This document shows positions 342 through 24,142 of a DNA stretch of 32,000 nt, one piece after another. The stretch covers positions 1,320,001 to 1,352,000 of the forward strand of contig NC_007493.2 in assembly GCF_000012905.2 (NCBI RefSeq), written 5' to 3'. The notes under the pieces are model-generated. The model had not been told where the DNA came from, did no database searches, and was given only the letters and a program-made list of their open reading frames with translations. Both the position numbers and the translations under genes were made by a program. The number at the start of each line of letters is the position of its first letter. The first letter of the stretch is position 1. This stretch comes from Cereibacter sphaeroides 2.4.1. Its GTDB lineage: Bacteria > Pseudomonadota > Alphaproteobacteria > Rhodobacterales > Rhodobacteraceae.

Positions 342-366
342 AACGGACGGTCGAAGCGAATGTTCC
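342..366 (-). promoter_or_regulatory. Perfect EcfG-type promoter motif GGAAC-N16-CGTT (reverse strand) upstream of the Arg/Asp-rich gene
   Basis: The plus strand reads AACG (342-345), 16 nt, GTTCC (362-366). This equals GGAAC-N16-CGTT on the minus strand, and the -10 element ends 66 nt upstream of the ATG at 275. The consensus is known from alphaproteobacterial EcfG/SigT/RpoE2 regulons. Confidence 0.6.
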
Positions 367-1280: not shown

Positions 1281-1661
1281 TCAGCCTTGCAGCAGCTTGT
1301 CGAGCAGCGTTGCAAGAAGCACCGCCGTGACGGGCTTCTGGAGGACGTCGATCTGCTGGAACTGCTCCGGGATGGCATCCGCACTTTCGCCGGTCACGAA
1401 GGCGAAGGGGATCCCGCGCGTCCCGAGCGTGCGGGCGAGCGCGAAACAGGTGCCATCGTCGAGCCGCAGATCCAGAAGGGCCGCATCCACGGTCTGATGG
1501 GCGATCAGGCGCAGCGCCTCGGCTTCGGTCCGCGCCGGGCCGACCGTTTCGAACCCCGATGCCGTCAGCTCGTCCACCATCGTCATGGCGAGGATCAGAT
1601 CGTTCTCGGCCACGAGGATGCGGGGCAGTCCGGTTTTCGCGCCCGAGGCGGTCTGGGTCAT
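1281..1661 (-). CDS. Single-domain response regulator (receiver only), PFxFATG-like (FAT GUY type) variant
   Basis: Track ORF 1281..1688. The preferred start is ATG at 1661 (MTQTASG...), with GGAG 9 nt upstream. Receiver hallmarks present are the acidic pair in LVAENDLIL, the phospho-acceptor Asp in AALLDLRL, Thr in PFAFVTGE and Lys in LQKPV. There is no output domain. Confidence 0.85.
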   Translation of the reverse strand: MTQTASGAKTGLPRILVAENDLILAMTMVDELTASGFETVGPARTEAEALRLIAHQTVDAALLDLRLDDGTCFALARTLGTRGIPFAFVTGESADAIPEQFQQIDVLQKPVTAVLLATLLDKLLQG

Positions 1662-1885: not shown

Positions 1886-1911
1886 GGAACGGTTCGGGTC
1901 CGCGGTACGTT
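1886..1911 (+). promoter_or_regulatory. Perfect EcfG-type promoter motif GGAAC-N17-CGTT upstream of mgtC-family gene
   Basis: GGAAC at 1886-1890, a 17-nt spacer, CGTT at 1908-1911. The ATG of the MgtC-family gene lies 60 nt downstream at 1972. Confidence 0.6.
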
Positions 1912-2911: not shown

Positions 2912-3166
2912 TCAGCCCGGCGCAATCCCGTCGCGCAGGCGGTCGGCCTCGTCGCGGATGCAGCGGATCTCCTCGGCAAGCGCCACTTCGATGCCGATGC
3001 CCGGTGCGGGCACGGCGCCGGGGTCCTCCTGATGGTCCTGCATGGTGCTGCGCTCGTCGAGCCAGTCGCGCAGCGCGTCGCTGCCTGCCAGCGCCACCAG
3101 GCGCGCCAGCACCTTGCGCTGCGCGATCAGCCGCCCCTCGATCGTGTCCGAAGTCAGTTCCGTCAT
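2912..3166 (-). CDS. Hypothetical 84-aa acidic helical protein, translationally coupled to ligD
   Basis: This is the C-terminal piece of the spurious track ORF 2912..4594. ATG at 3166-3164 overlaps the ligD stop (ATGA), and GGAGGG lies upstream inside the ligD 3' end. Sequence is MTELTSDTIEGRLIAQRKVLARLVALAGSDALRDWLDERSTMQDHQEDPGAVPAPGIGIEVALAEEIRCIRDEADRLRDGIAPG. Third-position GC is very high. No family was recognised. Confidence 0.7.
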   Translation of the reverse strand: MTELTSDTIEGRLIAQRKVLARLVALAGSDALRDWLDERSTMQDHQEDPGAVPAPGIGIEVALAEEIRCIRDEADRLRDGIAPG

Positions 3167-5769
3167 GGTTTCCCTCCTGCCACAAGTCGCTCGAGCCGCC
3201 CGATCACGGTCCGACCCAGTGTCGCGGGCCGGGCGGAGGCCTCGGCCAGCGGGCAGGGCCGGTCGAGCCGGTCGCGGATGGAGCGGATCGTCCAGTCGCC
3301 GCCCGACCGGGCCGAGGCGAGTTCGTCCCAGTCGACCGGCGTCGCCACCGGCGCGCCCGGGCGGGCGCGCAGGCTGTAGGGAGCGATCGCCGTCGAGCCG
3401 CGGTCGTTCCGCAGCCAGTCGATGAAGATCCGGCCCTTGCGCCCGGCCTTGGCCATCGTGGCCGTGTAGCGGTCGGGCGCCTCCTGAGCCAGATGGGTGG
3501 CGAGCGCCCGCGAGAAGAGCTTCACGCTCTCCCATTCGGCCTTGGGCTTCAGCGGCACGATCACATGCACCCCCTTGCCGCCGGAGAGCATCGGCACCGA
3601 GGGCAGGCCGAGGTCCGTGAGCAGACCGCGCAGCTCGGCCGCCGCGGTCCGCACATGGGCGAAGTCGAGACCCTCGTCGGGGTCGAGATCGAACACCAGC
3701 CGGTCCGGTCGCTGAAGGCTGCGGTTGCGCGAGCCCCAGATGTGGAATTCGAGTGTCCCCATCTGCGTGGCCCCGACCAGAGCCGCGACATCGGGCAGGG
3801 TGATGAAATCCTCGGGCCCCGATTTCGTCTCGACGGGCACCGTCTTCATCGCGACGGGCATGCCGCGGGTGCGGTGCTTCTGGAAGAAGCACTCCGCCGC
3901 CGCCCCTTCCGGGCAACGCAGGAGCGAGACGGGACGATCCTTCAGGAAGCGCAGCATCCGCGGCGCCAGTGCCTCGGCATGCTCCGCCACCTCGCGCTTC
4001 GTGACGGCGGGCCGGTCGTAGATCCGCCGGTCGGGGTGGCTGATGCGGATGCCTGCGACGCGCAGGTCGTCGGGTCGGGCCATCGTCGTCTCCTTCTTCT
4101 CCCCGCGCGCCGTCCGGGGTTTCCGGGCAGGCTCGGGGGCGGGCTCGTCGGGTGAGGGGGCGTCTGGCCGGGCCGTCTTCGTCCCCTTCTTCCGCACGCC
4201 CGACTTCCGGGGCGCGGGCGTTTCGGGCGCGGGCTCCTCGAGCCGCACCTCCCGCGCGTCCTTGTCGCTCCGCAGGCCGGCGAAGACCCCGTGCCGGATG
4301 TGCCCCTCCGCCGTCAGTTCGGTGAAGCTCACCTCGGCCACCAGCTCGGGCTTCAGCCAGTGCGCCCCCTTGGCCTCGGCCGGCGTGCGGTCGAAGGGGC
4401 AGGCGCTTTGCGCCCGTTCGGCCAGAAGCGGCTTCAACTCGCGGAACAGGGGGGCGCCGAAGCCGCTGCCGACACTGCCGCGGTAGACCAGACGGCTCTT
4501 TTCGTAGCTGCCCATCACCAGCGAGGCGAAGGGACGGCCCGGCTTGTCCGAGGCGTTCCAGCCGCAGATCACGAATTCCTGCCGGTGCGCGCATTTCACC
4601 TTCAGCCAGTCGCCGTTCCGGCTGCCCGCATAGGGCGCGGAGGCCCGCTTCGAGACGATCCCTTCAAGGCCCGCTGCGCATATGCGCTCGTGCACCTCGG
4701 GGCCGTGGCCGCGGATGTGGCCCGAGAAGCGCACCGCGCCGCGCCCCTTGCCGATCAGCGTCTTGAGCCGCTCCTTCCGCGCGAGAAGCGGCTGTCCGGT
4801 CAGGTCCTCGCCGTCGAGGAGCAGCAGGTCGAAGGTCATGAAGAGGAGCTGGCCCCCCGATTTCAGCCGTGCCTGCAGCTCGGAGAACGAGCCGCCCTCC
4901 CGGCCCGGCGCGATCACCTCGCCGTCGATCAGCGCCTCCTGGGCCTCAAGCGCCTCGACATCCTCGACGAGGGCGCCGAACTTGGCCGTCCAGTCGAGGC
5001 CGGAGCGGGTGTAGAGGCGGGCCCGACCTCCGGCGAGGGCCGCGAGGCAGCGGTAGCCGTCGAACTTGGTCTCGTGGATCCAGTCCTCGCCCTCGGGCGC
5101 CGCCGAAACGAGGCGCGCGAGCTGGAGCGGCCGGAAGGCGGGCAGGGCAGCCTGGCGCGTGCGCCGCGGTGGCGCCTTGCCGGCGGCGATCTGCTCCATG
5201 GTCCGCCCCGTTGCGACCGAGGTCATGTGCCGCTCGACCAGCTCCTCGGTCTGCTCGCTTTCATGCGTGTCGTGCTCCTTGATGAGGAGCCAGTTCTCGG
5301 CCTTCTCGCGCGGCCTGGGTTTCATGCGCACCAGCGTCCAGCGGCCGCGCATCCGCTCGCCCGCGAGGCGGATCTTGAGCTGACCGGTGCGCAGCCCCTC
5401 CGCAAAGTCGCCCTGCGGTTCCCAAGTGCCCCGGTCCCAGAGCATGACCGTGCCGCCGCCATATTCGCCCTTGGGGATCGTGCCCTCGAACTCGGCATAA
5501 TCCAGCGGATGATCCTCGGTTCGCACCGCAAGCCTGCGGGCGGACGGATCGGGCGAGGGGCCGCGCGTCACGGCCCAGCTCAGCAGGACACCGTTCCACT
5601 CCAGCCGGAAATCCCAGTGCAGACGGGAGGCTGCATGTTTCTGCACGACGAAGGACAGGCTCTCCGCCTCGGGGCGCGGCGCCTCGGAACGGCCCTGCGG
5701 CTCGGGCGTGCGCGCGAAGTCGCGCTTGGCGCGGTAGCGGTCGAGATCCTGTCGCGGGTTGGCGGGCAT
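3163..5769 (-). CDS. ligD: ATP-dependent DNA ligase LigD, three-domain (phosphoesterase - ligase - polymerase/primase) NHEJ enzyme
   Basis: Track ORF 3163..5904. The N-terminal 3'-phosphoesterase signature is FVVQKHAASRLHWDFRLE..WAVTRGPS. The central ligase carries the adenylation motif ETKFDGYR. The C-terminal LigD polymerase domain shows FHIWGSR, VFDLDP and GGKGVHVIVPL. The start is chosen at ATG 5769 (MPANPRQDLDRYRAKRDF..) because AGGAG lies 6 nt upstream. The alternative ATG at 5790 has no SD and sits at the predicted TSS of the promoter at 5795-5819. Confidence 0.9.
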   Translation of the reverse strand: MPANPRQDLDRYRAKRDFARTPEPQGRSEAPRPEAESLSFVVQKHAASRLHWDFRLEWNGVLLSWAVTRGPSPDPSARRLAVRTEDHPLDYAEFEGTIPKGEYGGGTVMLWDRGTWEPQGDFAEGLRTGQLKIRLAGERMRGRWTLVRMKPRPREKAENWLLIKEHDTHESEQTEELVERHMTSVATGRTMEQIAAGKAPPRRTRQAALPAFRPLQLARLVSAAPEGEDWIHETKFDGYRCLAALAGGRARLYTRSGLDWTAKFGALVEDVEALEAQEALIDGEVIAPGREGGSFSELQARLKSGGQLLFMTFDLLLLDGEDLTGQPLLARKERLKTLIGKGRGAVRFSGHIRGHGPEVHERICAAGLEGIVSKRASAPYAGSRNGDWLKVKCAHRQEFVICGWNASDKPGRPFASLVMGSYEKSRLVYRGSVGSGFGAPLFRELKPLLAERAQSACPFDRTPAEAKGAHWLKPELVAEVSFTELTAEGHIRHGVFAGLRSDKDAREVRLEEPAPETPAPRKSGVRKKGTKTARPDAPSPDEPAPEPARKPRTARGEKKETTMARPDDLRVAGIRISHPDRRIYDRPAVTKREVAEHAEALAPRMLRFLKDRPVSLLRCPEGAAAECFFQKHRTRGMPVAMKTVPVETKSGPEDFITLPDVAALVGATQMGTLEFHIWGSRNRSLQRPDRLVFDLDPDEGLDFAHVRTAAAELRGLLTDLGLPSVPMLSGGKGVHVIVPLKPKAEWESVKLFSRALATHLAQEAPDRYTATMAKAGRKGRIFIDWLRNDRGSTAIAPYSLRARPGAPVATPVDWDELASARSGGDWTIRSIRDRLDRPCPLAEASARPATLGRTVIGRLERLVAGGKP

Positions 5770-5794
5770 CGGCGGCTCCTGACGGCTCATGGGG

Positions 5795-5819
5795 AACGTG
5801 ACGGAGCGGGGACAGTTCC
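5795..5819 (-). promoter_or_regulatory. Perfect EcfG-type promoter motif GGAAC-N16-CGTT (reverse strand) upstream of ligD
   Basis: The plus strand reads AACG (5795-5798), 16 nt, GTTCC (5815-5819). The -10 element ends about 25 nt upstream of the ATG at 5769. Confidence 0.65.
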
Positions 5820-6036: not shown

Positions 6037-6062
6037 GGAACCTCGGGAACCGAGAGCGTGTT
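6037..6062 (+). promoter_or_regulatory. Near-consensus EcfG-like motif GGAAC-N17-TGTT preceded by an AT-rich patch
   Basis: GGAAC at 6037-6041, a 17-nt spacer, TGTT at 6059-6062 (GTT retained, one mismatch). A strikingly AT-rich stretch, atcatttgctaagaaaataatg (about 6006-6027), sits just upstream like an UP element. A second GGAAC occurs at 6046-6050. Confidence 0.3.
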
Positions 6063-6162
6063 CCCCCTGCGATGTGGGGCAGCTCGGGCAGAAGCAATGG
6101 ACAGTCGCGACAGCGGATTTCAGGGCGTGGCACGGGTTCCGGGGGGCGCCCGGAGACCGTCC

Positions 6163-6507
6163 ATGTCTCCGGCCGCAGGCGAGACGGATCGCCATCAGCC
6201 GGAGGACCGCCTCAGAGCCCCGATTGTGCCCTTGTCAGCCGACCCTGGCAGGAATGCCACAGCCGCAGCCGAGGCGGGAACCAATGGCGGCCAGGATGCT
6301 TGTGATGCGACAGTCACAAGACAAGAACCTGAGGCCATGTTTCATTTCATGCAAGATGGCCAGGGCGACGACCTGGTCAACCGACATGTCGAGGACAATC
6401 TTCGACGAACCTATGCCATATCGGCCGCCGATGAACCGATCGACGACCGGTTTGCCACGCTCCTGAAGCGTATCGCCGCGAAGCAGGCTCAGTCAGGCCG
6501 CAGCTGA
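6163..6507 (+). CDS. NepR-type anti-sigma factor-like protein (NepR motif at C-terminus)
   Basis: Same frame as track ORF 6058..6507. The C-terminal VEDNLRRTYAISAADEPIDDRFATLLKRIAAKQ matches the NepR signature (LRxxY...EP[ILV][PD]xRFxxLLxx[IL]). The start is uncertain. ATG 6163 has the best SD (GGAGA, 6-nt spacer). ATG 6337 would give a 56-aa NepR-sized protein but has a poor SD. Third-position GC is only about 60-67%, so coding statistics are weak and the call rests on the motif. Confidence 0.5.
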   Translation: MSPAAGETDRHQPEDRLRAPIVPLSADPGRNATAAAEAGTNGGQDACDATVTRQEPEAMFHFMQDGQGDDLVNRHVEDNLRRTYAISAADEPIDDRFATLLKRIAAKQAQSGRS

Positions 6508-6539
6508 CGGGCGCGGCCCGCTGCCGGTGGCGGCTGCAT

Positions 6540-6755
6540 TCAGATGTCCTGCTCCTCACGGACATCCGAACCGGGAAGCAGGACGGGCTCTGCGCATGCC
6601 TGCATCCTGAGGGCCATCGCCAGGCGCCGTGCGAGGATCTGGATCGGCTCGGGCACAGGCTCGGCCTCGAGGGCCCGCAGCAGTTCCTCGCTCAGTTCGC
6701 AGAGTTCGTCCCGTGCGGCGGGCGCACCGTCGTGATCCTGGTCGTTTATCATCAT
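6540..6755 (-). CDS. Small acidic protein (71 aa) with a second NepR-like motif, divergent from the ECF sigma gene
   Basis: Track ORF 6540..6812. The preferred start is ATG 6755 (MMINDQDHDG..), with AAGGGG 8 nt upstream. Third-position GC is about 79%. The segment LSEELLRALEAEPVPEPIQILARRLAMAL resembles the NepR EP[VLI]PE...L..L core, but it lacks the Tyr and the spacing is shorter. Confidence 0.45.
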   Translation of the reverse strand: MMINDQDHDGAPAARDELCELSEELLRALEAEPVPEPIQILARRLAMALRMQACAEPVLLPGSDVREEQDI

Positions 6756-6814
6756 GTCACCTGCCCCTTGTCGCCCTTTCTGCGACGAGCCGGCCGGGAG
6801 TGCAATCTCCAAGC

Positions 6815-6839
6815 GGAACCCGCCCGGTCAGGCGGCGTT
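6815..6839 (+). promoter_or_regulatory. Perfect EcfG-type promoter motif GGAAC-N16-CGTT upstream of the ECF sigma gene (autoregulation)
   Basis: GGAAC at 6815-6819, a 16-nt spacer, CGTT at 6836-6839. This is 44 nt upstream of the GTG start at 6883. Positive autoregulation is typical of EcfG-family sigma factors. Confidence 0.7.
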
Positions 6840-6882
6840 GATTTCGGAAAACGAAGGCGTGAAGAGCCAGGGAGAGCCGCCC

Positions 6883-7389
6883 GTGACGGATCAGACCCCA
6901 CCGCGATCGATCATACCGGATGTGGTCGATCTCATTCCGGCCCTGCGGGCCTATGCGCGCTCGCTCAGCCGCAACCAGTCCGACGCAGACGATCTCGTGC
7001 AGGAGACGCTTCTCAAGGCCATCGCCAATGTCGACAAGTTCCAGCCGGGCACGCGGCTCCGCGCCTGGCTCTTCACCATCCTGCGCAACACCTTCTACAC
7101 CCGCATCCGGGTCTCGGCCCGCGAGCGGACGGGGGCGGCCGACTGCGTCTCGGGCGAGATGTCGGTGCAGCCCTCGCAGGAATGGACGGTGCGGGGGCGC
7201 GAGCTGATGGCCGCCATCGACCGGCTGCCGCCGCATTACCGCGAGATCCTCATCCTCGTCGTCATGCTGGGCGAGAGCTATGAAGAGGCCGCCCGGATCT
7301 GCGACTGTGCCATCGGCACGGTGAAGAGCCGGGTCAGCCGCGCGCGACAGCTGGTGATGAACGATCTCGAAGGCACCGGAGAGGCCTGA
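6883..7389 (+). CDS. ECF RNA polymerase sigma factor, EcfG-like (ECF15-type general stress sigma)
   Basis: Track ORF 6754..7389. The preferred start is GTG 6883 (VTDQTPPRSIIPD..), with GGGAGAG 6 nt upstream and downstream of the promoter motif. Region 2 reads LRAYARSLSRNQSDADDLVQETLLKAIANVDKFQPGTRLRAWLFTILRNTFY. Region 4 reads YREILILVVMLGESYEEAARICDCAIGTVKSRVSRARQ. The region 2 sequence is very like EcfG/SigT/RpoE2 proteins. Confidence 0.9.
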   Translation: MTDQTPPRSIIPDVVDLIPALRAYARSLSRNQSDADDLVQETLLKAIANVDKFQPGTRLRAWLFTILRNTFYTRIRVSARERTGAADCVSGEMSVQPSQEWTVRGRELMAAIDRLPPHYREILILVVMLGESYEEAARICDCAIGTVKSRVSRARQLVMNDLEGTGEA

Positions 7390-7558
7390 GAGGATCATCA
7401 TATCCGCACAGTTCACGGCCATTGCCTGCCCATCCCCGCCTTGGCCTCACGGTGCCTGCGGGCCCGGAGGGCAGTGGCCTTCTGCGGCAGCCCGGGCGCG
7501 GTCGGCTGCTCCCGCATCGCGGAAAGCGGGGCGGAAGCGCGCAGCCCGGACCCTGCGA

Positions 7559-7587
7559 TTGCACGGCCCCCGGCGCCGGGGTATGTG
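7559..7587 (+). promoter_or_regulatory. Candidate sigma-70 promoter for fabD (TTGCAC-N17-TATGTG)
   Basis: -35 TTGCAC at 7559-7564, a 17-nt spacer, -10 TATGTG at 7582-7587. The SD GAAGGAG lies at 7604-7610 and the ATG at 7619. The spacer contains a perfect 14-bp palindrome ccccggcgccgggg (7568-7581). Confidence 0.3.
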
Positions 7588-7618
7588 CCTTTGCCAAGGA
7601 AGAGAAGGAGATCCGACC

Positions 7619-8580: not shown

Positions 8581-8613
8581 CCGCCCGCGGGGGCATCGAA
8601 CCCCCGCAGGCGG
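8581..8613 (+). terminator. GC-rich stem-loop 30 nt after fabD stop (possible terminator/stabiliser, no U-tract)
   Basis: ccgcc-c-gcggggg-catcgaa-cccccgc-a-ggcgg forms a 5+7 bp stem with one internal mismatch. It lies in the convergent gap between fabD and the DUF1289 gene. Confidence 0.3.
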
Positions 8614-8781
8614 CGCTGCCGCGGAAGACCGCTCCGCCCGTCGGAGCAGTGGCAGGAGCGGTCCTCCGCCGATCTTCGCAGGGCAAGGCCAGCCGGGAGG
8701 ACCGGTGCCCCGCGGCCCGTTCCTCCCGGCTCTGGACGGAGCCGCCGCAAGCCTGCTTGAGGAATGCCGCTTGCGCGGGCC

Positions 8782-9012
8782 TCAGCCGGACGTGCGGCCC
8801 GCGTGGCCGCCGCGGCGGCGGGCGAGGCGCGGGGCCCGCGCGGGAAGCTCGGCCATCACCGCACGGCGTGCCTCGGGCGTGAGACGCGACCAGCCGGCGA
8901 TTTCCTCGAGCGTCCGATGGCAGCCCACGCAGATCCGCTCCTCGGGATGGATCATGCAGAGCTTCACGCAGGGGCTCTCGATCTCGTCGCGCCTCCAGAT
9001 GTCGTCCTTCAT
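8782..9012 (-). CDS. DUF1289 domain protein (small Cys-rich, putative Fe-S/metal binding)
   Basis: SPCVKLCMIHPEERICVGCHRTLEEIAGW matches the DUF1289 pattern SPCxxxC...CxGCxRTxxEIxxW. Its ATG at 9012-9010 overlaps the ruvX stop (ATGA). Confidence 0.85.
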   Translation of the reverse strand: MKDDIWRRDEIESPCVKLCMIHPEERICVGCHRTLEEIAGWSRLTPEARRAVMAELPARAPRLARRRGGHAGRTSG

Positions 9013-9491
9013 GCGCCCCCCTCGCGGCCGAGCCAGTCCAGACGGTCCAGCACTCCCTGCAGGATATAGCCCGCCGCGACGTGATCGATCACCTCGGCGC
9101 GACGCTTTCGTGACGTATCCGCCTCGAGGAGCGCCCGTTCGGCCGCCACGGTCGACAGACGCTCGTCCCAGAAGCCCACCGGCAGCGGCAGCACCTGCAC
9201 CAGATTGCGCGCGAAGGCCCGGGTCGATTGCGCGCGCGGCCCCTCGCTGCCGTCCATGTTGCGCGGCAGACCGAGCACGATCCCCACCAGCCGGCGCTCG
9301 GCGGCGATGGCCTTGAGCTTGGCCGCATCCTCGGTGAACTTCGTGCGCCGCACGGTCAGGAGCGGGGTCGCGATCCGCCTGAGCCCGTCCGACACCGCCA
9401 CGCCCACGGTCTTGGTGCCGAGATCGAGACCCGCGAGCGCGCCGGTGCGCGGCAGGCTGGCGAGGAAATCCTCGATACGGTCGTGGATCAC
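9009..9491 (-). CDS. ruvX: Holliday junction resolvase-like / pre-16S rRNA nuclease RuvX (YqgF)
   Basis: This is the C-terminal part of track ORF 9009..10790. GLDLGTKTVGVAVSD, IVLGLPRNMDGSEGPRAQ and FWDERLSTVAAER are YqgF signatures. The GTG start at 9491-9489 overlaps the ccmI stop (GTGA). Confidence 0.9.
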   Translation of the reverse strand: MIHDRIEDFLASLPRTGALAGLDLGTKTVGVAVSDGLRRIATPLLTVRRTKFTEDAAKLKAIAAERRLVGIVLGLPRNMDGSEGPRAQSTRAFARNLVQVLPLPVGFWDERLSTVAAERALLEADTSRKRRAEVIDHVAAGYILQGVLDRLDWLGREGGA

Positions 9492-10741
9492 TCGGCCACC
9501 CCCGCCTGCGCGCCCGCCGCGCGGATCGCGGCCAGTTCGGTGTCGCGCCCGTCGAACCGGTCCAGAGCCTCGCCGTAGATGGCGCGGGCGCGGTCGGTCT
9601 CGCCCAGCACGCCCAGGGCGCCGATCAGGCGCGCCCATTCCTCGGCGGTGCCGCCTTCGGTCGCGAGCCGCTGGTTCAGGCCCTCGACCATGCCGCGGAT
9701 CATTTCCTGCCGGGCCTCGGGCGTCATCGCCTCGGCCGCGCGCACGGCCTCTTCGGAGGGGCCGGCCGGCACGTCGCCTTCGGGGGCCGCCGCCGGCGGC
9801 AGCTCGTATTTCACGCCGGCGAGCCAGGCCAGCTGCTCGATCTGTGCCCGGAGCGGCGCGACCCAGGGGTCGTTCGGGCGCGAGCTTTCGAGAAGCGAGC
9901 GCCAGAGGCGGAAGGCCATGTCCGGCCGCCCGGTCTGGGCGAGGAGCATCCCCGAATAATAGCGCGCGGTGCCGTTCTGCGGATCGAGGCGCAGCGCCTC
10001 GGTCAGACGGGCCTCGGCCTCGGGCGAGACGATGCCGCCGGCGGCGAGGATCATGAGTTCGCCGAGGGCTGCCTGATCCTCGGCCGTGACCTTCGGCTGC
10101 GACAGATCGATCACCTTCGCCTGCGCGTGCGCCGCGGCCGCATAATTGCCGAGCGCGGCCTCGTTGCGCGCGAGAAGCTCCTGCCCCCGGATGTCGTCGG
10201 GGTTGTTCGCGACGGCGGCGCGCAGCTTCTCCATCAGCTCGAGAAACTGGGCGTCCGGTGCGGGGGCGGCGGGGCGGGGCGCTCCGGCCATCCGCGCCTC
10301 GGCGTCGGCCTGGCTCGGACGGTCGCGATAGGCCGTTTCGGCCTGCGCCAGCCGGGCCGACATCGGCATGTCCTGATAACCCGGCGCGCCGAGATCGAGG
10401 TAGGTCGCGAATGACCCGCCGAGCAGGACCAGCATCGCGCCCGCGGCCGCGATCCGGGCCGAGCCGGGGGCCCGCGCATCCGAGCCGGCCGCCTTCAGCG
10501 CGCGGTCGGCCTCGAGCAGACGGCGCGAAACCTCGGCCTTCAGCCGGTCGGCTTCCTCGGGGCGCATCGTGCCGCGGGCGACATCGCGCTCGATCTCGCG
10601 CAACTGGTCGCGATAGACCTGCATGTCGTAGGCCGCGGCCGGAGCCGCCTCCCGCCCTCCGCGCAGCAGCGCCTGCACGAGGATCACGCCGACGCCGAGC
10701 GCGATCACGCCGGCGAGGATCCAGAACAGCGTCATTTCCAT
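9488..10741 (-). CDS. ccmI: c-type cytochrome biogenesis protein CcmI/CycH (TPR)
   Basis: Track ORF 9488..10801. The preferred start is ATG 10741 (MEMTLFWILAGVIALGVGVILVQALL..), with GGGGGA upstream. The N-terminal TM plus YRDQLREIERDVARG..EEADRLKAEVSRRLL and C-terminal TPR-like repeats are typical of CcmI/CycH. Confidence 0.85.
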   Translation of the reverse strand: MEMTLFWILAGVIALGVGVILVQALLRGGREAAPAAAYDMQVYRDQLREIERDVARGTMRPEEADRLKAEVSRRLLEADRALKAAGSDARAPGSARIAAAGAMLVLLGGSFATYLDLGAPGYQDMPMSARLAQAETAYRDRPSQADAEARMAGAPRPAAPAPDAQFLELMEKLRAAVANNPDDIRGQELLARNEAALGNYAAAAHAQAKVIDLSQPKVTAEDQAALGELMILAAGGIVSPEAEARLTEALRLDPQNGTARYYSGMLLAQTGRPDMAFRLWRSLLESSRPNDPWVAPLRAQIEQLAWLAGVKYELPPAAAPEGDVPAGPSEEAVRAAEAMTPEARQEMIRGMVEGLNQRLATEGGTAEEWARLIGALGVLGETDRARAIYGEALDRFDGRDTELAAIRAAGAQAGVAE

Positions 10742-10825
10742 GCAGTCCCCCGTGCTGACGGCCTCCATGTAAGGGGTCTGGCTGACGCACAAAAGGGTCA
10801 ATATCCCGTCATCGGGACGCAGGCG

Positions 10826-10888
10826 GATGTCGCAACTCGGTGATGTCGCATTTGTGCGGATTGTGCCGCTTGCACGCGGGGCTATAAC
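10826..10888 (+). promoter_or_regulatory. Short direct-repeat array plus candidate sigma-70 promoter in the ccmI/soxB divergent region
   Basis: GATGTCGCA occurs twice (10826-10834 and 10842-10850; 16-bp period). TTGTGC(G/C)G occurs twice (10852-10859 and 10861-10868; 9-bp period). A possible promoter is TTGTGC (10861-10866)-N16-TATAAC (10883-10888), about 50 nt before the soxB ATG. Confidence 0.3.
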
Positions 10889-10937
10889 TCGTCCCCGTTC
10901 CAGAAGGCTCTATAGGCCCGAGACGGGGAGTCGGCAC

Positions 10938-12185
10938 ATGAAACGCTATTCGGTCTTCGCCATCGCCCGCGAGGCGCTGCGCCATCATACGGGGTGGGAG
11001 CGCGCCTGGGCCTCGCCCGAACCCAAGGCGTCCTATGACGTGATCGTGATCGGCGCCGGCGGCCACGGCCTCGCCACGGCCTATTACCTCGGGAAGAATT
11101 TCGGGATCACCAATGTTGCGGTGATCGAGAAGGGCTGGCTCGGCGGCGGCAATACCGGGCGGAACACGACGATCATCCGCTCGAACTACCTGCAGGATCC
11201 GTCGGCCGCCATCTACGAGAAGGCGCGCAGTCTCTACGAGACCCTGAGCCAGGATCTGAACTACAACGTGATGTTCAGCCCGCGCGGGCTCCTCATGCTG
11301 GCGCAGACCCATCACGAGGTGCGCGGCTACATGCGCACGGTGCATGCCAACCTTCTGCAGGGCGTCGAGACCGAATGGATCGGCCCCGAGCAGGTCAAGC
11401 GTCTGGTCCCGATCATGAACATCCACGGGCCGCGCTATCCGGTGCTGGGGGCGCTCCTCCAGAAGCGGGGCGGCACGGCGCGCCACGATGCGGTGGCCTG
11501 GGGCTATGCGCGGGCCTGTTCGGCGATGGGCATGGACATCATCCAGCAGTGCGAGGTGAAGGGCGTCCGCTCCGAAGGCGGCGTCGTCACCGGGGTCGAG
11601 ACGACGAAGGGCTTCATCGGCACGAAGAAGCTCGCCATCGTGGTGGCGGGACATTCGGGGCAGGTGGCCGAGATGGCGGGCTTCCGGCTGCCGGTCGAGG
11701 CGGTGGCGCTGCAGGCGCTGGTCTCCGAGCCGGTCAAACCCTGCATCGACGTGGTGGTGATGGCCAACACGGTGCACGGCTACATGAGCCAGTCCGACAA
11801 GGGCGAGCTGGTGATCGGCGGCGGCACCGACAGTTTCAACAACTTCACCCAGCGCGGCAGCTTCCATCATATCGAGGAGACGCTGCGCGCGCTGGTGGAG
11901 ACCTTCCCGATCATCTCGCGCCTCAAGATGCTGCGGCAGTGGGGCGGGATCGTGGACATGACCGGCGACCGCTCGCCGATCCTCTCGAAGACGCCGCTGG
12001 GGAACTGCTTCATCAACTGCGGCTGGGGCACGGGGGGCTTCAAGGCCATCCCCGGCTCCGGCTGGGCAATGGCGGAGCTGGTGGCCAAGGGCGAACCGGG
12101 CGCGCTTGCCGCGGATTTCGGCATGGACCGTTTCCGCGAGGGCCGTTTCATCGACGAATCGGTCGCGGCGGGGGTCGCGCACTGA
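10938..12185 (+). CDS. soxB: Sarcosine oxidase subunit beta
   Basis: Track ORF 10827..12185. ATG at 10938 (MKRYSVFAIAREALRHH..) follows GGGGAG. It carries the FAD fold YDVIVIGAGGHGLATAYYL, and the size (415 aa) and context (soxD/A/G downstream) fit heterotetrameric SoxB. Confidence 0.93.
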   Translation: MKRYSVFAIAREALRHHTGWERAWASPEPKASYDVIVIGAGGHGLATAYYLGKNFGITNVAVIEKGWLGGGNTGRNTTIIRSNYLQDPSAAIYEKARSLYETLSQDLNYNVMFSPRGLLMLAQTHHEVRGYMRTVHANLLQGVETEWIGPEQVKRLVPIMNIHGPRYPVLGALLQKRGGTARHDAVAWGYARACSAMGMDIIQQCEVKGVRSEGGVVTGVETTKGFIGTKKLAIVVAGHSGQVAEMAGFRLPVEAVALQALVSEPVKPCIDVVVMANTVHGYMSQSDKGELVIGGGTDSFNNFTQRGSFHHIEETLRALVETFPIISRLKMLRQWGGIVDMTGDRSPILSKTPLGNCFINCGWGTGGFKAIPGSGWAMAELVAKGEPGALAADFGMDRFREGRFIDESVAAGVAH

Positions 12186-12264
12186 TGCAGCCGCGTTACC
12201 GTGTCGCTTTGACGCCTGTGCTCCATGCGGTATCTCCTGTGCACAACTCTCTGGAGACGCCGAC

Positions 12265-12639
12265 ATGTTCTCATTCATCGACGACATCCCGTCCTTCGAG
12301 CAAATCAAGGCCCGGGTTCGGGACGACCTCAGGAAACACGGCTGGGAAAAGCGCTGGAACGACTCCCGCCTGGTGCAGAAATCGCGCGAGCTCCTCAACG
12401 ACGAGGAACTCAAGATCGATCCTGCGACCTGGATCTGGAAGCGCATGCCCTCGCGTGAGGAAGTCGCGGCCCGGCGCCAGCGCGATTTCGAGACTGTCTG
12501 GAAATATCGCTACCGCCTCGGCGGCTTCGCCTCGGGCGCCCTTCTGGCCCTGGCCCTCGCCGGCATCTTCTCCACGGGCAACTTCGGCGGCTCCTCGGAC
12601 GCCGGCAACCGCCCCAGCGTCGTCTATCCCATCGAATGA
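12265..12639 (+). CDS. Hypothetical 124-aa protein with C-terminal TM helix, inserted between soxB and soxD
   Basis: This is the C-terminal part of track ORF 12106..12639. ATG at 12265 follows GGAGA (7-nt spacer). Sequence is MFSFIDDIPSFEQIKARVRDDLRKHGWEKRWNDSRLVQKSRELLNDEELKIDPATWIWKRMPSREEVAARRQRDFETVWKYRYRLGGFASGALLALALAGIFSTGNFGGSSDAGNRPSVVYPIE. Third-position GC is high. Confidence 0.75.
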   Translation: MFSFIDDIPSFEQIKARVRDDLRKHGWEKRWNDSRLVQKSRELLNDEELKIDPATWIWKRMPSREEVAARRQRDFETVWKYRYRLGGFASGALLALALAGIFSTGNFGGSSDAGNRPSVVYPIE

Positions 12640-12678
12640 CCCGGGCGCCTGCGCCCGGCCAGACCGGAGCGCAAGCGC

Positions 12679-13002
12679 ATGCTGATCCTCGAATGTCCCT
12701 ACTGCGGCGTGAAGGCCGAGGAAACCGAACTCAGTCCGGGTCATGAGGCGCATCTGAAGCGCTTCGGACCCGGATCCTCGGACGAGGATTTCGAATCCTA
12801 CATGTTCGCCCGGAAGAACCCCAAGGGGGTCCATTTCGAGCGGTGGCGCCACAGCTATGGCTGCGGCAAGTGGTTCCTCGCCGCGCGCTGCACCGCGACG
12901 CTCGAGGTGTTCGGCACCTACCCGGCGCAGACCTCCGAGCCGCCCCCCGACATCGTGGCCAAGATCAAGGCACGGCGTCCGGAATGGGAGGGCTACAAAT
13001 GA
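12679..13002 (+). CDS. soxD: Sarcosine oxidase subunit delta
   Basis: 107 aa. MLILECPYCGVKAEETELSPGHEAHLKR...YMFARKNPKGVHFERWRHSYGCGKWF shows the Cys-rich zinc-type SoxD pattern. Its stop overlaps the soxA ATG (ATGA). Confidence 0.92.
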   Translation: MLILECPYCGVKAEETELSPGHEAHLKRFGPGSSDEDFESYMFARKNPKGVHFERWRHSYGCGKWFLAARCTATLEVFGTYPAQTSEPPPDIVAKIKARRPEWEGYK

Positions 13003-15980
13003 GCACGCGTCTCGCACGGGGCGGACGGCTGATCGACCGCAGCCGCGCCATCGACTTCACCTTCAACGGCAAGCGGATGCGCGGCTTCGCGGGCGACACG
13101 CTGGCCGCGGCGCTTCTCGCCAACGACCAGATGCTGGTCGGGCGCAGCTTCAAGTATCACCGTCCGCGCGGCATCGTGGCGGCGGGCGCCGAAGAGCCGA
13201 ACGCGCTGGTCCAGCTCGGCACCGGCGGCCGGTCGGAGCCGAACCAGCGCACCACCACGACCGAGCTTTTCGCGGGGCTGACGGCGGCCAGCCAGAACCA
13301 CTGGCCGAGCCTCGAATTCGACGTGGGCGCGGTCAATGCGGCAGCGTCGCGCTTCCTGCCCGCAGGCTTCTACTACAAGACCTTCCTGCAGCCGCGCGCC
13401 GCGTGGAAACACCTGTTCGAGCCGGTCATCCGCCGCTCGGCGGGCCTCGGACGGCCGCCGGAAGAACCCGATGCGGACCGCTACGAGCAGGCCTATGCCT
13501 TCTGCGACCTCCTTGTGGTGGGCGGAGGCATCGCGGGGCTTCAGGCAGCGGTCAGCGCCTCGGCCTCGGGCCGGAAGGTGATGCTCCTCGAGCAGACGCC
13601 GCACTGGGGCGGACGCGCCCCTGTCGATGACGTGCTGATCGACGGGCGCCCGGCGGCGGACTGGGTGGCGGACACGGTGGCGGCACTCGAGGCCGCGCCC
13701 AATGTCACGCTCCGCACCCGCTGCATGGCGGCCGGCGTCTACGACCACGGCTATGTGCTGGCCGAGGAGCGCGTGGCCGATCATACGCCGGGCGACGGAC
13801 GGCCGAAGAAGCGCCTCTGGCGCATCCGCGCGGGCAAGGTCCTCACGGCGACGGGAGCCATCGAGCGTCCGCTGCCCTTCGCCGGCAACGATATTCCGGG
13901 CGTCATGCTCGCCTCGGCGGTGCGCGACTATCTGGTGAACTGGGCCGTCTCTCCCGGCGACCGGGTGGTGATCGTCACGAACAACGACGACGCCTACCGC
14001 ACCGCCATCGCCGTTCACCGCGCGGGGCTGACCGTGCCGGCCGTGCTCGATGCGCGGGCCGAGGCCCACGGCGCGCTGCCCGAAGAGGTGCGCAGCCTCG
14101 GCATCCCGGTCCTCACCAATCGCGCGGTGGCCAAGGTCAAGGGCGGCAAGCGCGTGACCGGCGTCACCGTCTGCGCGCAGGCGGGCGAGGGGGCGGTGCT
14201 CGACGATTTCGACTGCGATGCGGTCGCCATGTCGGGCGGCTGGTCGCCGGTCGTCCATCTCTGGAGCCACTGCGGCGGCAAGCTGATCTGGGACGAGGCG
14301 CAGGCGGCCTTCCGGCCCGACCCGGCCCGCCCGCCGATCACCCATGACGGCTCGCCGATGGTGGCGGTTGCGGGCTCGGCCAATGGCGAGCTGCTCTCGG
14401 CCGATGTGCTGGCCGATGCCCTCCGCGCCGCGGGCGGCGAGGGCGAGGCGCCCCGGGCGCAGAGCCCCGAGGAGGCGCCGACCGAGCCGGTCTGGATCAT
14501 GCCGCAGGGCGCCCCGCCGGCGCTCCGCTCGAAGATGTGGCTCGACTATCAGAACGACGTGAAAGTGTCGGACGTGCAGCTCGCCGCCCGCGAGGGCTAC
14601 GAGTCGGTCGAGCACACCAAGCGCTATACGACGCTCGGCATGGCCACCGATCAGGGCAAGCTCAGCAACATCAACGGGCTGGCCGTGCTCGCAGGCTCGC
14701 TCAATGCGCCGATCCCCGCGGTGGGCACCACCACCTTCCGCCCGCCCTACACGCCCGTCACCCTCGGCGCGCTGGTGGGCGAGGCGCGGGGCGAGATCTT
14801 CCAGCCGCTGCGCCGTACGCCGATGCACGACTGGCACGAGGCCCATGGCGCCTACTGGGAGCCGGTGGGCCTCTGGCGCCGGCCCTACTGCTACAGCCGT
14901 CCGGGCGAGAGCCATGGCGATGCGGTGGCCCGCGAGGTCACCAACGCGCGCACGAAGCTCGGTCTCCTCGACGCCTCGACGCTGGGCAAGATCCTCGTGA
15001 AGGGGCCCGATGCGGGCCGCTTCCTCGACATGCTCTACACCAACGTCATGTCGAGCCTGCCGGTCGGGCGCTGCCGCTACGGCCTCATGTGCAACGAGAA
15101 CGGCTTCCTGATGGACGATGGCGTGGTGGTCCGTCTCTCCGAGGACAGCTGGCTCTGCCACACGACCTCGGGCGGGGCGGACCGGATCCATGCCCATATG
15201 GAGGACTGGCTCCAGTGCGAATGGTGGGACTGGCAGGTCTATACCGCCAATCTCACCGAGCAGTTCGCGCAGGTGGCCATCGTCGGCCCCAACGCGCGCC
15301 TGCTGCTGGAAAAGCTCGGCGGCATGGATGTCTCGAAGGAGGCGCTGCCCTTCATGCACTGGGCGGAAGGCACCATCGCGGGCATTCCCGCGCGGGTGTT
15401 CCGCATCAGCTTCTCGGGCGAGCTCTCCTACGAGGTGGCGGTGCCCGCGGGGCAGGGGCTGGCCTTCTGGCAGGCCTGCCTCGAGGCGGGCGCCGAATTC
15501 GGCCTCATGCCCTACGGCACCGAGGCGCTGCATGTGATGCGGGCCGAGAAGGGCTTCATCATGATCGGCGACGAGACCGACGGCACGGTGGTGCCGCAGG
15601 ACCTGAACCTCGGCTGGGCGATCTCGAAGAAGAAGGCGGATTTCATCGGCAAGCGCGGCATGGAGCGAACCTTCCTGTCGAGCCCCGACCGCTGGAAGCT
15701 CGTGGGTCTCGAGACGCTCGACGGCTCGGTCCTGCCCGACGGCGCCATCGCGCCCGCGGCGGGCTCGAATGGGAACGGGCAGCGCAACACTCAGGGCCGC
15801 GTGACCTCGACCTACTGGTCGCCCACGCTGAAGAAGGGCATCGCCATGGGCCTCGTCCATCGCGGGACGGACCGGATGGGCGAGGTGATCGAGTTCCCGA
15901 AGATCTGGGGTGGCGTGGTGCAGGCGCGGATCGTCGATCCGGTGTTCTACGACAAGGCGGGAGAGAAGCAGGATGTCTGA
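12999..15980 (+). CDS. soxA: Sarcosine oxidase subunit alpha
   Basis: Track ORF 12843..15980. ATG at 12999 (MSTRLARGGRLIDRSRAIDFTFNGKRMRGFAGDTLAAALLANDQMLVGRSFKYHRPRGI). It has the nucleotide-binding motif DLLVVGGGIAGLQAA and a C-terminal aminomethyltransferase/folate-binding-like domain. Length is 993 aa. Confidence 0.93.
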   Translation: MSTRLARGGRLIDRSRAIDFTFNGKRMRGFAGDTLAAALLANDQMLVGRSFKYHRPRGIVAAGAEEPNALVQLGTGGRSEPNQRTTTTELFAGLTAASQNHWPSLEFDVGAVNAAASRFLPAGFYYKTFLQPRAAWKHLFEPVIRRSAGLGRPPEEPDADRYEQAYAFCDLLVVGGGIAGLQAAVSASASGRKVMLLEQTPHWGGRAPVDDVLIDGRPAADWVADTVAALEAAPNVTLRTRCMAAGVYDHGYVLAEERVADHTPGDGRPKKRLWRIRAGKVLTATGAIERPLPFAGNDIPGVMLASAVRDYLVNWAVSPGDRVVIVTNNDDAYRTAIAVHRAGLTVPAVLDARAEAHGALPEEVRSLGIPVLTNRAVAKVKGGKRVTGVTVCAQAGEGAVLDDFDCDAVAMSGGWSPVVHLWSHCGGKLIWDEAQAAFRPDPARPPITHDGSPMVAVAGSANGELLSADVLADALRAAGGEGEAPRAQSPEEAPTEPVWIMPQGAPPALRSKMWLDYQNDVKVSDVQLAAREGYESVEHTKRYTTLGMATDQGKLSNINGLAVLAGSLNAPIPAVGTTTFRPPYTPVTLGALVGEARGEIFQPLRRTPMHDWHEAHGAYWEPVGLWRRPYCYSRPGESHGDAVAREVTNARTKLGLLDASTLGKILVKGPDAGRFLDMLYTNVMSSLPVGRCRYGLMCNENGFLMDDGVVVRLSEDSWLCHTTSGGADRIHAHMEDWLQCEWWDWQVYTANLTEQFAQVAIVGPNARLLLEKLGGMDVSKEALPFMHWAEGTIAGIPARVFRISFSGELSYEVAVPAGQGLAFWQACLEAGAEFGLMPYGTEALHVMRAEKGFIMIGDETDGTVVPQDLNLGWAISKKKADFIGKRGMERTFLSSPDRWKLVGLETLDGSVLPDGAIAPAAGSNGNGQRNTQGRVTSTYWSPTLKKGIAMGLVHRGTDRMGEVIEFPKIWGGVVQARIVDPVFYDKAGEKQDV

Positions 15981-23494: not shown

Positions 23495-24142
23495 TTGAGC
23501 AACCCCGAGAGTTTCATCGACGAGGTGACCGAGGAGGTCCGCCGCGAACGGCTGTTCGGCTATTTCCGGCGCTATGGCTGGATCGCGCTCGTCGCCGTGA
23601 TCGCCCTCGTGGGCGGTGCCGCCTACATCGAATGGCAGAAGTCGCAAGACGCCGCAGAGTCGCAGGCCTTCGGCGACGCGATCCTTGCGGCCCTCGAGGC
23701 GCCGGATGCGGCGGCCCGTCGGGCGGCGGTGGCCGCCATTCCGGCCGAGGGCGCGCGTGCCGCGCTGCGGGATCTGATGGTGGCCTCCGATCCGGCCGCC
23801 GATCGCGCGGCCTCGCTCCGCGCGCTCGAAGGCGTGGCTGCGAACGCCACGCTCGATCCCGCGTTCCGCGACCTTGCGGTGCTGCGCCGCGTGATCCTTG
23901 CCGGGGCGGAGATGCCGGTGGCCGACCGCCGTGCCGCGCTCGATGAGATTGCAGCGCCGGGCCGGCCCTACCGCACGCTCGCGCTGGAGCAGATGGCCTA
24001 TCTGGACGTCGAAGCGGGCAAGCCCGCCGAGGCCATCCAGACGCTGCGCAACCTCGTGCAGGACCAGGAGGCGACGCAGGGCCTGCGCCGGCGCGCCGAA
24101 CAGATGATCACCGCTCTGGGCGGCGACACCCAGGCCGGCTGA
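23495..24142 (+). CDS. YfgM-like TPR membrane protein (upstream partner of bamB/der)
   Basis: 215 aa. The apparent TTG start at 23495 follows GAGGGAGAGG. It has the conserved N-terminus SFIDEVTEEVRRERLF followed by one TM helix. The position before bamB-der matches the conserved yfgM-bamB-der synteny. Confidence 0.8.
   Translation: MSNPESFIDEVTEEVRRERLFGYFRRYGWIALVAVIALVGGAAYIEWQKSQDAAESQAFGDAILAALEAPDAAARRAAVAAIPAEGARAALRDLMVASDPAADRAASLRALEGVAANATLDPAFRDLAVLRRVILAGAEMPVADRRAALDEIAAPGRPYRTLALEQMAYLDVEAGKPAEAIQTLRNLVQDQEATQGLRRRAEQMITALGGDTQAG

Follow-up and report, generated by a model that had tools for sequence, protein, structure and literature searches.

In the 32,000-nucleotide stretch of the Cereibacter sphaeroides 2.4.1 genome analyzed here (contig NC_007493.2, positions 1,320,001 to 1,352,000; hereafter the window, position 1 being its first letter), the segment from 5.8 to 7.4 kb encodes an EcfG-type sigma factor of the extracytoplasmic function (ECF) group, flanked by two small conserved proteins. 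We consider it probable that this locus is a secondary, non-canonical EcfG module with a NepR paralogue, rather than a general stress response (GSR) core without PhyR. In order, the segment contains the beginning of minus-strand ligD, an open reading frame (ORF) of the plus strand that ends at 6507, a convergent 71-amino-acid ORF (6540-6755, minus strand), the sigma factor gene (6883-7389, plus strand), and fabD. The usual GSR layout has phyR divergent from a nepR-ecfG operon. An initial annotation of this DNA had read the departure from that layout as an atypical GSR regulatory core, a view that does not stand because a canonical locus is present in the same species: phyR (RSP_1274), a gene for a NepR-like protein of 68 amino acids (RSP_1273), ecfG (RSP_1272) and a kinase gene (RSP_1271) are described for R. 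sphaeroides in PMC5830050, the source on which we rely for the existence of this locus. RSP_1274 also bears out the suggestion, made in the same annotation, that PhyR is encoded elsewhere.

The LigD protein of strain 2.4.1 is RSP_2679 (PMC7183636), and because the numbering is consecutive from there, the small acidic ORF, the sigma factor and fabD correspond to RSP_2680, RSP_2681 and RSP_2682. Sequence look-ups identify the 71-amino-acid product as ABA78835.1 (Q3J2Z9_CERS4) and the fabD product as ABA78837.1; the sigma factor is identical to a multispecies Cereibacter protein whose cluster includes ABA78836.2, the "sigma factor, RpoE" of strain 2.4.1. The plus-strand gene is called nepR2 below.

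RSP_2681 (168 amino acids, read from a GTG) consists of sigma-70 regions 2 and 4 only, which is the ECF architecture, and Pfam reports Sigma70_r2 (7.6e-18), Sigma70_r4_2 (8.5e-17) and PhyR_sigma2 (57.8 bits). Its closest solved relative in a PDB search is 5UXX_A (1.6e-35, 125.8 bits, with the runner-up at 79 bits), a sigma factor of Bartonella quintana that was crystallized with a chain B named "Anti-sigma factor NepR". Its identity to the EcfG encoded in a locus with phyR divergent from nepR-ecfG (L063) is 50%. These similarity searches, which take the place of a formal ECF classifier or a tree, group RSP_2681 with the ECF15/EcfG-type sigma factors, in agreement with the identity first assigned to it. 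RSP_2681 is not the classical RpoE; the PDB structure of R. sphaeroides RpoE-ChrR is absent from its matches. The ratio of nonsynonymous to synonymous substitution rates (dN/dS) is 0.04-0.09 for the sigma factor gene. Gene calls of 167-168 amino acids in six relatives support the GTG start at 6883, and longer reading frames begin within or upstream of the promoter of the gene. In PMC5830050 this protein appears only as a second one "annotated as RpoE", with no role reported.

The promoter in question is a perfect EcfG-type motif, GGAAC-N16-CGTT, at 6815-6839 on the plus strand. The initial annotation had pointed to it. All Cereibacter species, C. flavus and Pseudaminobacter retain the motif, at a distance of 64-80 nt upstream of the sigma factor gene. 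The Pseudaminobacter orthologue of the sigma factor is 58% identical, and no NepR-like ORF is found near it in the Pseudaminobacter locus (L011). In that locus, from Pseudaminobacter soli, the sigma factor orthologue is followed by a protein of 1949 amino acids (8605-14454) with many HAMP-like repeats, which, judged by eye from the translation, has the look of a hybrid histidine kinase.

The layout of a primary ECF15 copy, a nepR-ecfG operon divergent from phyR, is not found in the window, which contains no PhyR and in which the nepR-like gene and the sigma factor gene do not share an operon. This departure is what defines a non-canonical copy and is no ground for excluding the protein from ECF15 (PMC3892343). 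The initial annotation had seen no ORF with both a sigma-like domain and a receiver in the 32 kb, and this was upheld by tblastn with two PhyR proteins, whose only match in the window (1359-1619) is the receiver of an SdrG-like regulator. A phmmer search with the sigma factor found a single sigma-like ORF in the window; as a probe the sigma factor cannot detect PhyR's sigma-like domain, for which the PhyR sequences were used. An open frame of PhyR size (270 amino acids) in C. changlensis was set aside after it was found to hold a receiver only. Two observations on other loci with PhyR or a PhyR-like protein may be recorded here. In Inquilinus limosus (L021, 273-1313), a PhyR-like protein of 347 amino acids has complete sigma regions 2 and 4 together with a partial receiver and retains sigma-type Pfam matches; an ECF sigma factor is encoded about 7 kb away. 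In two metagenomic loci with the canonical arrangement of phyR divergent from nepR, sigma and an HWE kinase, the "sigma" of 160 amino acids (L061, 6149-6631; L062, 1832-2314) has no Sigma70_r2 or Sigma70_r4 Pfam match and only a weak PhyR_sigma-like one, is 29% identical to RSP_2681, and may be a degenerate or pseudo-sigma.

For the two small genes we compared twelve loci of the Cereibacter group (L001-L010, L012 and the window), several of which come from strains of one species. Both ORFs are under purifying selection and are syntenic in more than ten loci, which answers the question of their coding conservation that the initial annotation had raised. A scan for further loci with the sigma factor as probe, a query that gives poor peptide patterns, returned mostly Cereibacter loci and unrelated ECF sigma factors, and no canonical loci. 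A plasmid origin of the segment was considered and rejected; megablast against plasmids gave merely a 40-nt fragment of the sigma factor gene.

The plus-strand ORF does end at 6507 with the C-terminus that had been likened to NepR, and its third-position GC content (0.63-0.67, against 0.79-0.92 in neighboring genes) is indeed as weak as had been cautioned. The low value, together with a promoter-like site about 265 nt upstream that is followed by a drifting leader, would also suit a region that is mainly a regulatory RNA or a long leader in which the NepR-like frame is fortuitous. We hold this to be extremely unlikely, because the last 56 codons, compared with those of C. azotoformans, C. sediminicola, a CZR27-type strain and a further lineage of C. 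sphaeroides, evolve with a dN/dS of 0.08-0.30 at a dS of about 1, the ATG at 6337 and the GAGG preceding it as a Shine-Dalgarno sequence are conserved in nine loci, and the similarity to NepR is shared by five diverged orthologues and extends to the NepR of a canonical locus. Rfam, moreover, has no match for the locus or for the whole window, which argues against a known small RNA or leader. In the upstream extension of the frame dN/dS rises to 0.4-1.0 and the start codons are not conserved. A RefSeq protein of identical sequence (WP_009562319.1) has 56 amino acids. The ambiguity between starts at 6163 and 6337 is thereby settled, most likely, in favor of 6337. A long N-terminal extension (from 6058, 6097 or 6163) was rejected on its near-neutral dN/dS, its unconserved starts and its rare codons over promoter-like motifs; it may still be translated in some species, since the length differences among lineages are multiples of three.

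The plus-strand ORF thus is a real gene of 56 codons (nepR2, 6337-6507, product MFHFMQDGQGDDLVNRHVEDNLRRTYAISAADEPIDDRFATLLKRIAAKQAQSGRS), and profile comparisons make its product a divergent member of the NepR family. NepR is its sole Pfam family match, with an E value of 0.0018 for a form of 149 amino acids; the 56-amino-acid form reaches 2.4e-4 against PF18557 at 21.1 bits, under the gathering cut-off of 25.7 bits. When the NepR model proposed as a check was applied to both small ORFs, this match, weak as it is, recurred in all five nepR2 orthologues (5/5) and the acidic ORF gave none. As a reference we used 118 proteins carrying PF18557, a set that is dominated by Caulobacter-like sequences and is nearly monomorphic. 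Run against some 14,000 six-frame ORFs, a profile built from it gives the nepR2 family the top rank (E 3e-6 to 0.1), and conversely the top 20 non-family matches of the nepR2 profile are all NepR. By hhalign the nepR2 family matches NepR with a probability of 91.6% (P 8e-7), and a small diverse NepR alignment with 96% (E 4e-9, 47 columns); its score was reached by 0/150 and 0/100 column shuffles. The NepR most like nepR2, P0119 (34 bits against the family profile), is encoded in a canonical locus of phyR divergent from nepR, sigma and an HWE kinase. Both helices of the family are recognizable in nepR2, helix 1 as NLRRxY and helix 2 as DRFAxLLxRI, and the C. johrii orthologue is named "Anti-sigma factor NepR domain-containing protein" in UniProt. 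Neither small ORF, used singly or as a profile, recovered NepR chains from the PDB, where these chains were found with a consensus peptide.

The nepR2 gene lies 375 bp upstream of the sigma factor gene, the distance originally reported, in nine of ten lineages and is not co-transcribed with it. In C. changlensis (L012) a gene for a stress protein of 168 amino acids on the minus strand (7093-7599), DUF892/YciE-like to the eye, stands between nepR2 and the acidic ORF. Two EcfG-like promoter candidates precede nepR2 on its own strand. The first, P1 (GGAAC-N17-TGTT, 6037-6062), is one half of a GGAAC-N18-GTTCC palindrome (6037-6064) and would start transcription near 6070, about 265 nt before the ORF; its position is conserved in eight Cereibacter loci, where GGAAC and GTT are kept and the flanks drift, and it is absent from C. 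changlensis. The second, P2 (GGAAC-N16-GCTT, 6277-6301), lies 36 nt before the ATG, and its GGAAC and CTTGT are invariant in 9/9 loci, including C. changlensis, whose upstream DNA is otherwise unrelated. Read as codons, P2 would consist of rare, A/T-ending triplets (GGA, TGT, ACA, AGA, CAA, GAA) in a genome with a third-position GC of about 0.85, which argues for constraint at the DNA level. From these patterns we infer that P1 and P2 act as promoters of nepR2. Only some 30 nt at the head of the presumed leader (6070-6100) and its last 60 nt or so are conserved in the interval 6070-6336, the middle drifting with insertions and deletions, and a 7-bp inverted repeat (CTTGTGA-N8-TCACAAG, 6299-6320) stands directly before the Shine-Dalgarno sequence.

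The second small ORF, RSP_2680, is as acidic as it was said to be (pI 4.2, with 16 D+E against 6 K+R), and its placement divergent from the sigma factor gene, where phyR would be expected, recurs in all twelve loci of the Cereibacter group (12/12). Its dN/dS is 0.22-0.56, and a core, LLRA[IL]EAEPVPEPI..LARRLA, is near-invariant between termini that drift. A word-indexed protein search found homologues in Cereibacter only; five more relatives, of 58-69 amino acids (E up to 2e-4), came from a profile search run exhaustively over 1.8 billion representatives, one each in C. changlensis and C. flavus and three in metagenomes. Of the partners of the sigma factor, the acidic protein has the tightest linkage to it across species. 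In C. flavus its homologue is divergent from an EcfG-type sigma factor gene with a GGAAC-N16-CGTT promoter, in another neighborhood and with no nepR2 nearby, and in C. changlensis the insertion parts nepR2, and not the acidic ORF, from the sigma factor gene. The acidic ORF is therefore a real, conserved and lineage-restricted gene that is tied to the sigma factor. No GGAAC occurs upstream on its strand. A putative housekeeping-type promoter, TTGCAC-N17-CAGAAA, is present at 6777-6805 on the minus strand; a simple sigma-70 scan missed it, and C. azotoformans, C. sediminicola, the CZR27-type strain and C. changlensis share it in the form TTGC(A/G)(C/T)-N17-CA(A/G)A(A/G)(A/C). Descent of the acidic ORF from a phyR remnant was considered and dropped, as the ORF has no similarity to PhyR.

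The claim that the acidic ORF carries a second, more degenerate NepR-like core fared less well, and we retain it as suggestive. What speaks for it is an hhalign match in which ELLRALEAEPVPEPIQILARRL of the acidic family is aligned with QMFDEVVNEPVPDEFLDILRRA of NepR, falling on the NepR linker and helix 2, with scores reached by 0/150 and 1/100 column shuffles. All Cereibacter members have an invariant EPVP between two amphipathic helices, and one distant relative reads QPVP. The helix-1 signature L-R-x-x-[YF] is not found at the standard distance from the linker, where the acidic ORF reads LLRA[IL]EA-EPVP. With a three-residue deletion, LLRALEA---EPVPE fits helix 1 of the canonical-locus NepR P0119, LRRAYDATVNEPVPD (LRRAYDAtvnEPVP).

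Several findings weigh against the reading of the locus as an EcfG module with NepR-type regulators, and they concern mostly the two small proteins. The Pfam score of nepR2 stays beneath the family threshold, as given above. Its linker reads EPID, QSTD, QTTD, EAMD or ESGG in five lineages, with no conserved EPxP, whereas the final proline of the linker is invariant in the 118 NepRs examined. In Caulobacter, a poly-Ala linker abolishes the binding of NepR to SigT and to PhyR (PMC4551977), and without the linker proline nepR2 may not bind in the classical way. The -10 elements of both P1 and P2 deviate from the CGTT consensus. The acidic ORF has no Pfam or NCBIfam match (five orthologues and four distant relatives were searched against Pfam), and its hhalign probabilities against NepR are just 30% (P 5.5e-4) and 41% (P 2.9e-4) over 22-25 columns only. 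Its profile does place 110 of 118 NepRs in the top 200 of 14,080 sequences, an enrichment that we treat as suggestive because the six-frame-ORF background flatters it and the NepR set is nearly monomorphic; composition and the shortness of the EPVP motif may account for it. By hhalign, nepR2 and the acidic family have no similarity to each other. On three short metagenomic contigs the acidic homologue is found beside a Cu/Zn superoxide dismutase gene with no sigma factor in view. Finally, the literature searched holds only passing mentions of RSP_2681 and the small ORFs. The supplements of PMC5830050 contain no data on RSP_2679-2682, database annotation of the parts of the locus is generic only, and an EcfG2-NepR2 module is not discussed in the literature searched.

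Some of these findings would be expected if nepR2 alone belonged to the circuit and the acidic ORF were an unrelated stress or regulon protein whose resemblance to the EPVP helix is coincidental. The missing family matches, the low hhalign probabilities, the neighborhood of superoxide dismutase in place of a sigma factor on the short contigs and the lack of a GGAAC promoter can all be understood in this way. The explanation is nevertheless unlikely in our judgment, given that the divergent linkage of the acidic ORF and the sigma factor gene is seen in every Cereibacter genome examined, including C. flavus without nepR2, that the C. changlensis insertion leaves the acidic ORF beside the sigma factor gene, and that linker and helix 2 are exactly the parts of NepR that the ORF matches, with a score that exceeds column shuffles.

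The initial annotation had also raised a PhyR-independent or rewired partner switch, for example with the acidic paralogue as a decoy or modulator. In such a circuit the module would run on its own, and the acidic protein would titrate nepR2 off the sigma factor, or the reverse. The window indeed offers no PhyR within its 32 kb, nine lineages retain both of the small NepR-like proteins, which differ from each other, and each of the two retains a different half of the NepR signature. In addition, PMC5830050 reports that deletion of phyR in R. sphaeroides leaves almost no general-stress phenotype, and the PhyR cascade is judged there to have a minor role, in membrane stress. Such a switch nonetheless seems quite improbable to us. 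A canonical PhyR is encoded in the genome, phospho-PhyR binds NepR-type helices, the SdrG-like receiver in the vicinity points to the usual phosphorelay, and the two putative decoy partners are not similar to each other; furthermore, the non-canonical EcfG copies of other species are under the control of PhyR or EcfG1 (PMC3892343, PMC4814048).

A proposal that joins elements of these views keeps PhyR elsewhere in the genome and makes the acidic protein the dedicated anti-sigma factor of RSP_2681, with the linker-less nepR2 as a feedback modulator, for example a factor that titrates PhyR; the result would be a partner switch of four proteins. RSP_2680 would then typify a new NepR-derived class that preserves EPVP and helix 2 but has lost three residues of helix 1. 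Taken as a whole this proposal is tentative and, in our estimate, doubtful. If true, it could explain why, in R. sphaeroides, deletion of phyR or work on RSP_1272 alone brought to light next to no general stress phenotype.

Returning to the secondary EcfG module with a NepR paralogue, the promoter motifs and family assignments suggest how it might work. The GGAAC-N16-CGTT motif suggests that the sigma factor gene would be switched on by an EcfG-type holoenzyme, containing either RSP_2681 itself or RSP_1272. From its own GGAAC-type promoter candidates nepR2 would rise with the response and provide negative feedback, its product binding the sigma factor as an anti-sigma factor or binding PhyR, as some NepR paralogues of Methylobacterium do. 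The acidic protein would most likely be a second modulator, made constitutively and binding the sigma factor or PhyR, whether NepR-derived or convergent; this is the weakest step of the scheme. Release would come from phospho-PhyR (RSP_1274) of the canonical locus. If the promoter readings hold, sigma factor and nepR2 would be stress-induced and the acidic protein constitutive, and the module would contain positive as well as negative feedback.

The surroundings are consistent with a stress function. The strict GGAAC-CGTT motif occurs five times in the 32 kb against 0.23 expected, and 0/100 shuffles reached five. Apart from the copy before the sigma factor gene, three lie in promoter position: GGAAC-N16/17-CGTT at 342-366 (minus strand) before a BON-domain gene that starts at about 275 and runs off the window, GGAAC-N16/17-CGTT at 1886-1911 (plus strand) before mgtC (1972-2724), and GGAAC-N16-CGTT at 5795-5819 (minus strand) before ligD (RSP_2679, 3163-5769, minus strand). 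The last copy in particular indicates that the motif of the sigma factor serves neighboring stress genes. A further perfect motif, at 23843-23867 on the minus strand, falls within a gene of the plus strand and could be a chance or an antisense match. The copy before ligD is part of a GGAAC-N15-GTTCC palindrome (5793-5819) which, like the one at 6037-6064, produces EcfG-like matches on both strands; the former would serve ligD on the minus strand. Syntenic loci additionally contain PRC-barrel and PQQ-dehydrogenase genes. The receiver at 1281-1661 (minus strand) is a single-domain response regulator of 126 amino acids for which the PDB gives Sphingomonas melonis SdrG as the best match (5IEB, 2.3e-13), with Sma0114 (2LPM) and the receivers of PhyR as other close solved relatives. 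All syntenic Cereibacter loci retain this regulator, which may take part in a general-stress phosphorelay. Because of the motif-bearing stress genes and this receiver, we place the sigma factor in an island of the general-stress type.

With the canonical PhyR-NepR-EcfG switch (Caulobacter PhyR/NepR/SigT, or RSP_1274/1273/1272 with the kinase RSP_1271) the locus shares an EcfG-type sigma factor, the GGAAC-N16-CGTT promoter, a small NepR-family protein nearby, motif-bearing regulon genes and an SdrG-like receiver in the island. It differs in that neither phyR nor an HWE/HisKA_2 kinase gene is adjacent, in that the NepR-like gene is 375 bp away from the sigma factor gene with a convergent gene between them and no co-transcription, in that the NepR-like protein lacks EPxP, and in that a small acidic protein occupies the divergent position. 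The receiver resembles SdrG, its best solved relative, but is encoded about 5 kb from the sigma factor gene, and its role is a prediction.

Roughly half of alphaproteobacterial genomes carry non-canonical EcfG copies, which are encoded apart from phyR and control overlapping stress regulons (PMC3892343). RSP_2681 is comparable to one of them, sigma-EcfG2 (PF00052) of Rhizobium etli, a second ECF15 sigma factor located away from phyR (PMC3892343). The R. etli gene, however, has no anti-sigma or regulator gene nearby, whereas two conserved small candidate regulators flank the sigma factor here. Caulobacter SigU is presumably another non-canonical EcfG copy. Extra NepR-family proteins also have counterparts: Methylobacterium extorquens AM1 has NepR paralogues (e.g., META2p0735) with EcfG-type promoters, some of which bind PhyR and no sigma factor and have been termed "anti-anti-anti-sigma" (PMC4814048), and Sphingopyxis granuli TFA has a duplicated NepR1/NepR2 pair (PMC9303464). 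The likeness of nepR2 to these paralogues includes, for some of them, an EcfG-type promoter and negative feedback. In contrast to nepR2 with its degenerate linker, the Methylobacterium paralogues keep most of the PhyR-contact residues, and a tail-to-tail pairing with a second NepR-like protein is not reported for the paralogues of either Methylobacterium or Sphingopyxis. The locus is thus a paralogue module of a kind that has precedents in Rhizobium, Methylobacterium and Sphingopyxis.

Outside alphaproteobacterial stress signaling this is an ordinary story of paralogues. Within that field, the two small proteins divide the NepR signature between them, nepR2 keeping the helices and the acidic protein the linker, and the pair could inform how NepR tells a sigma factor from PhyR. 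For the model organism itself, RSP_2681 as a second EcfG gives a concrete and testable reason for the weak phenotype of the phyR deletion.

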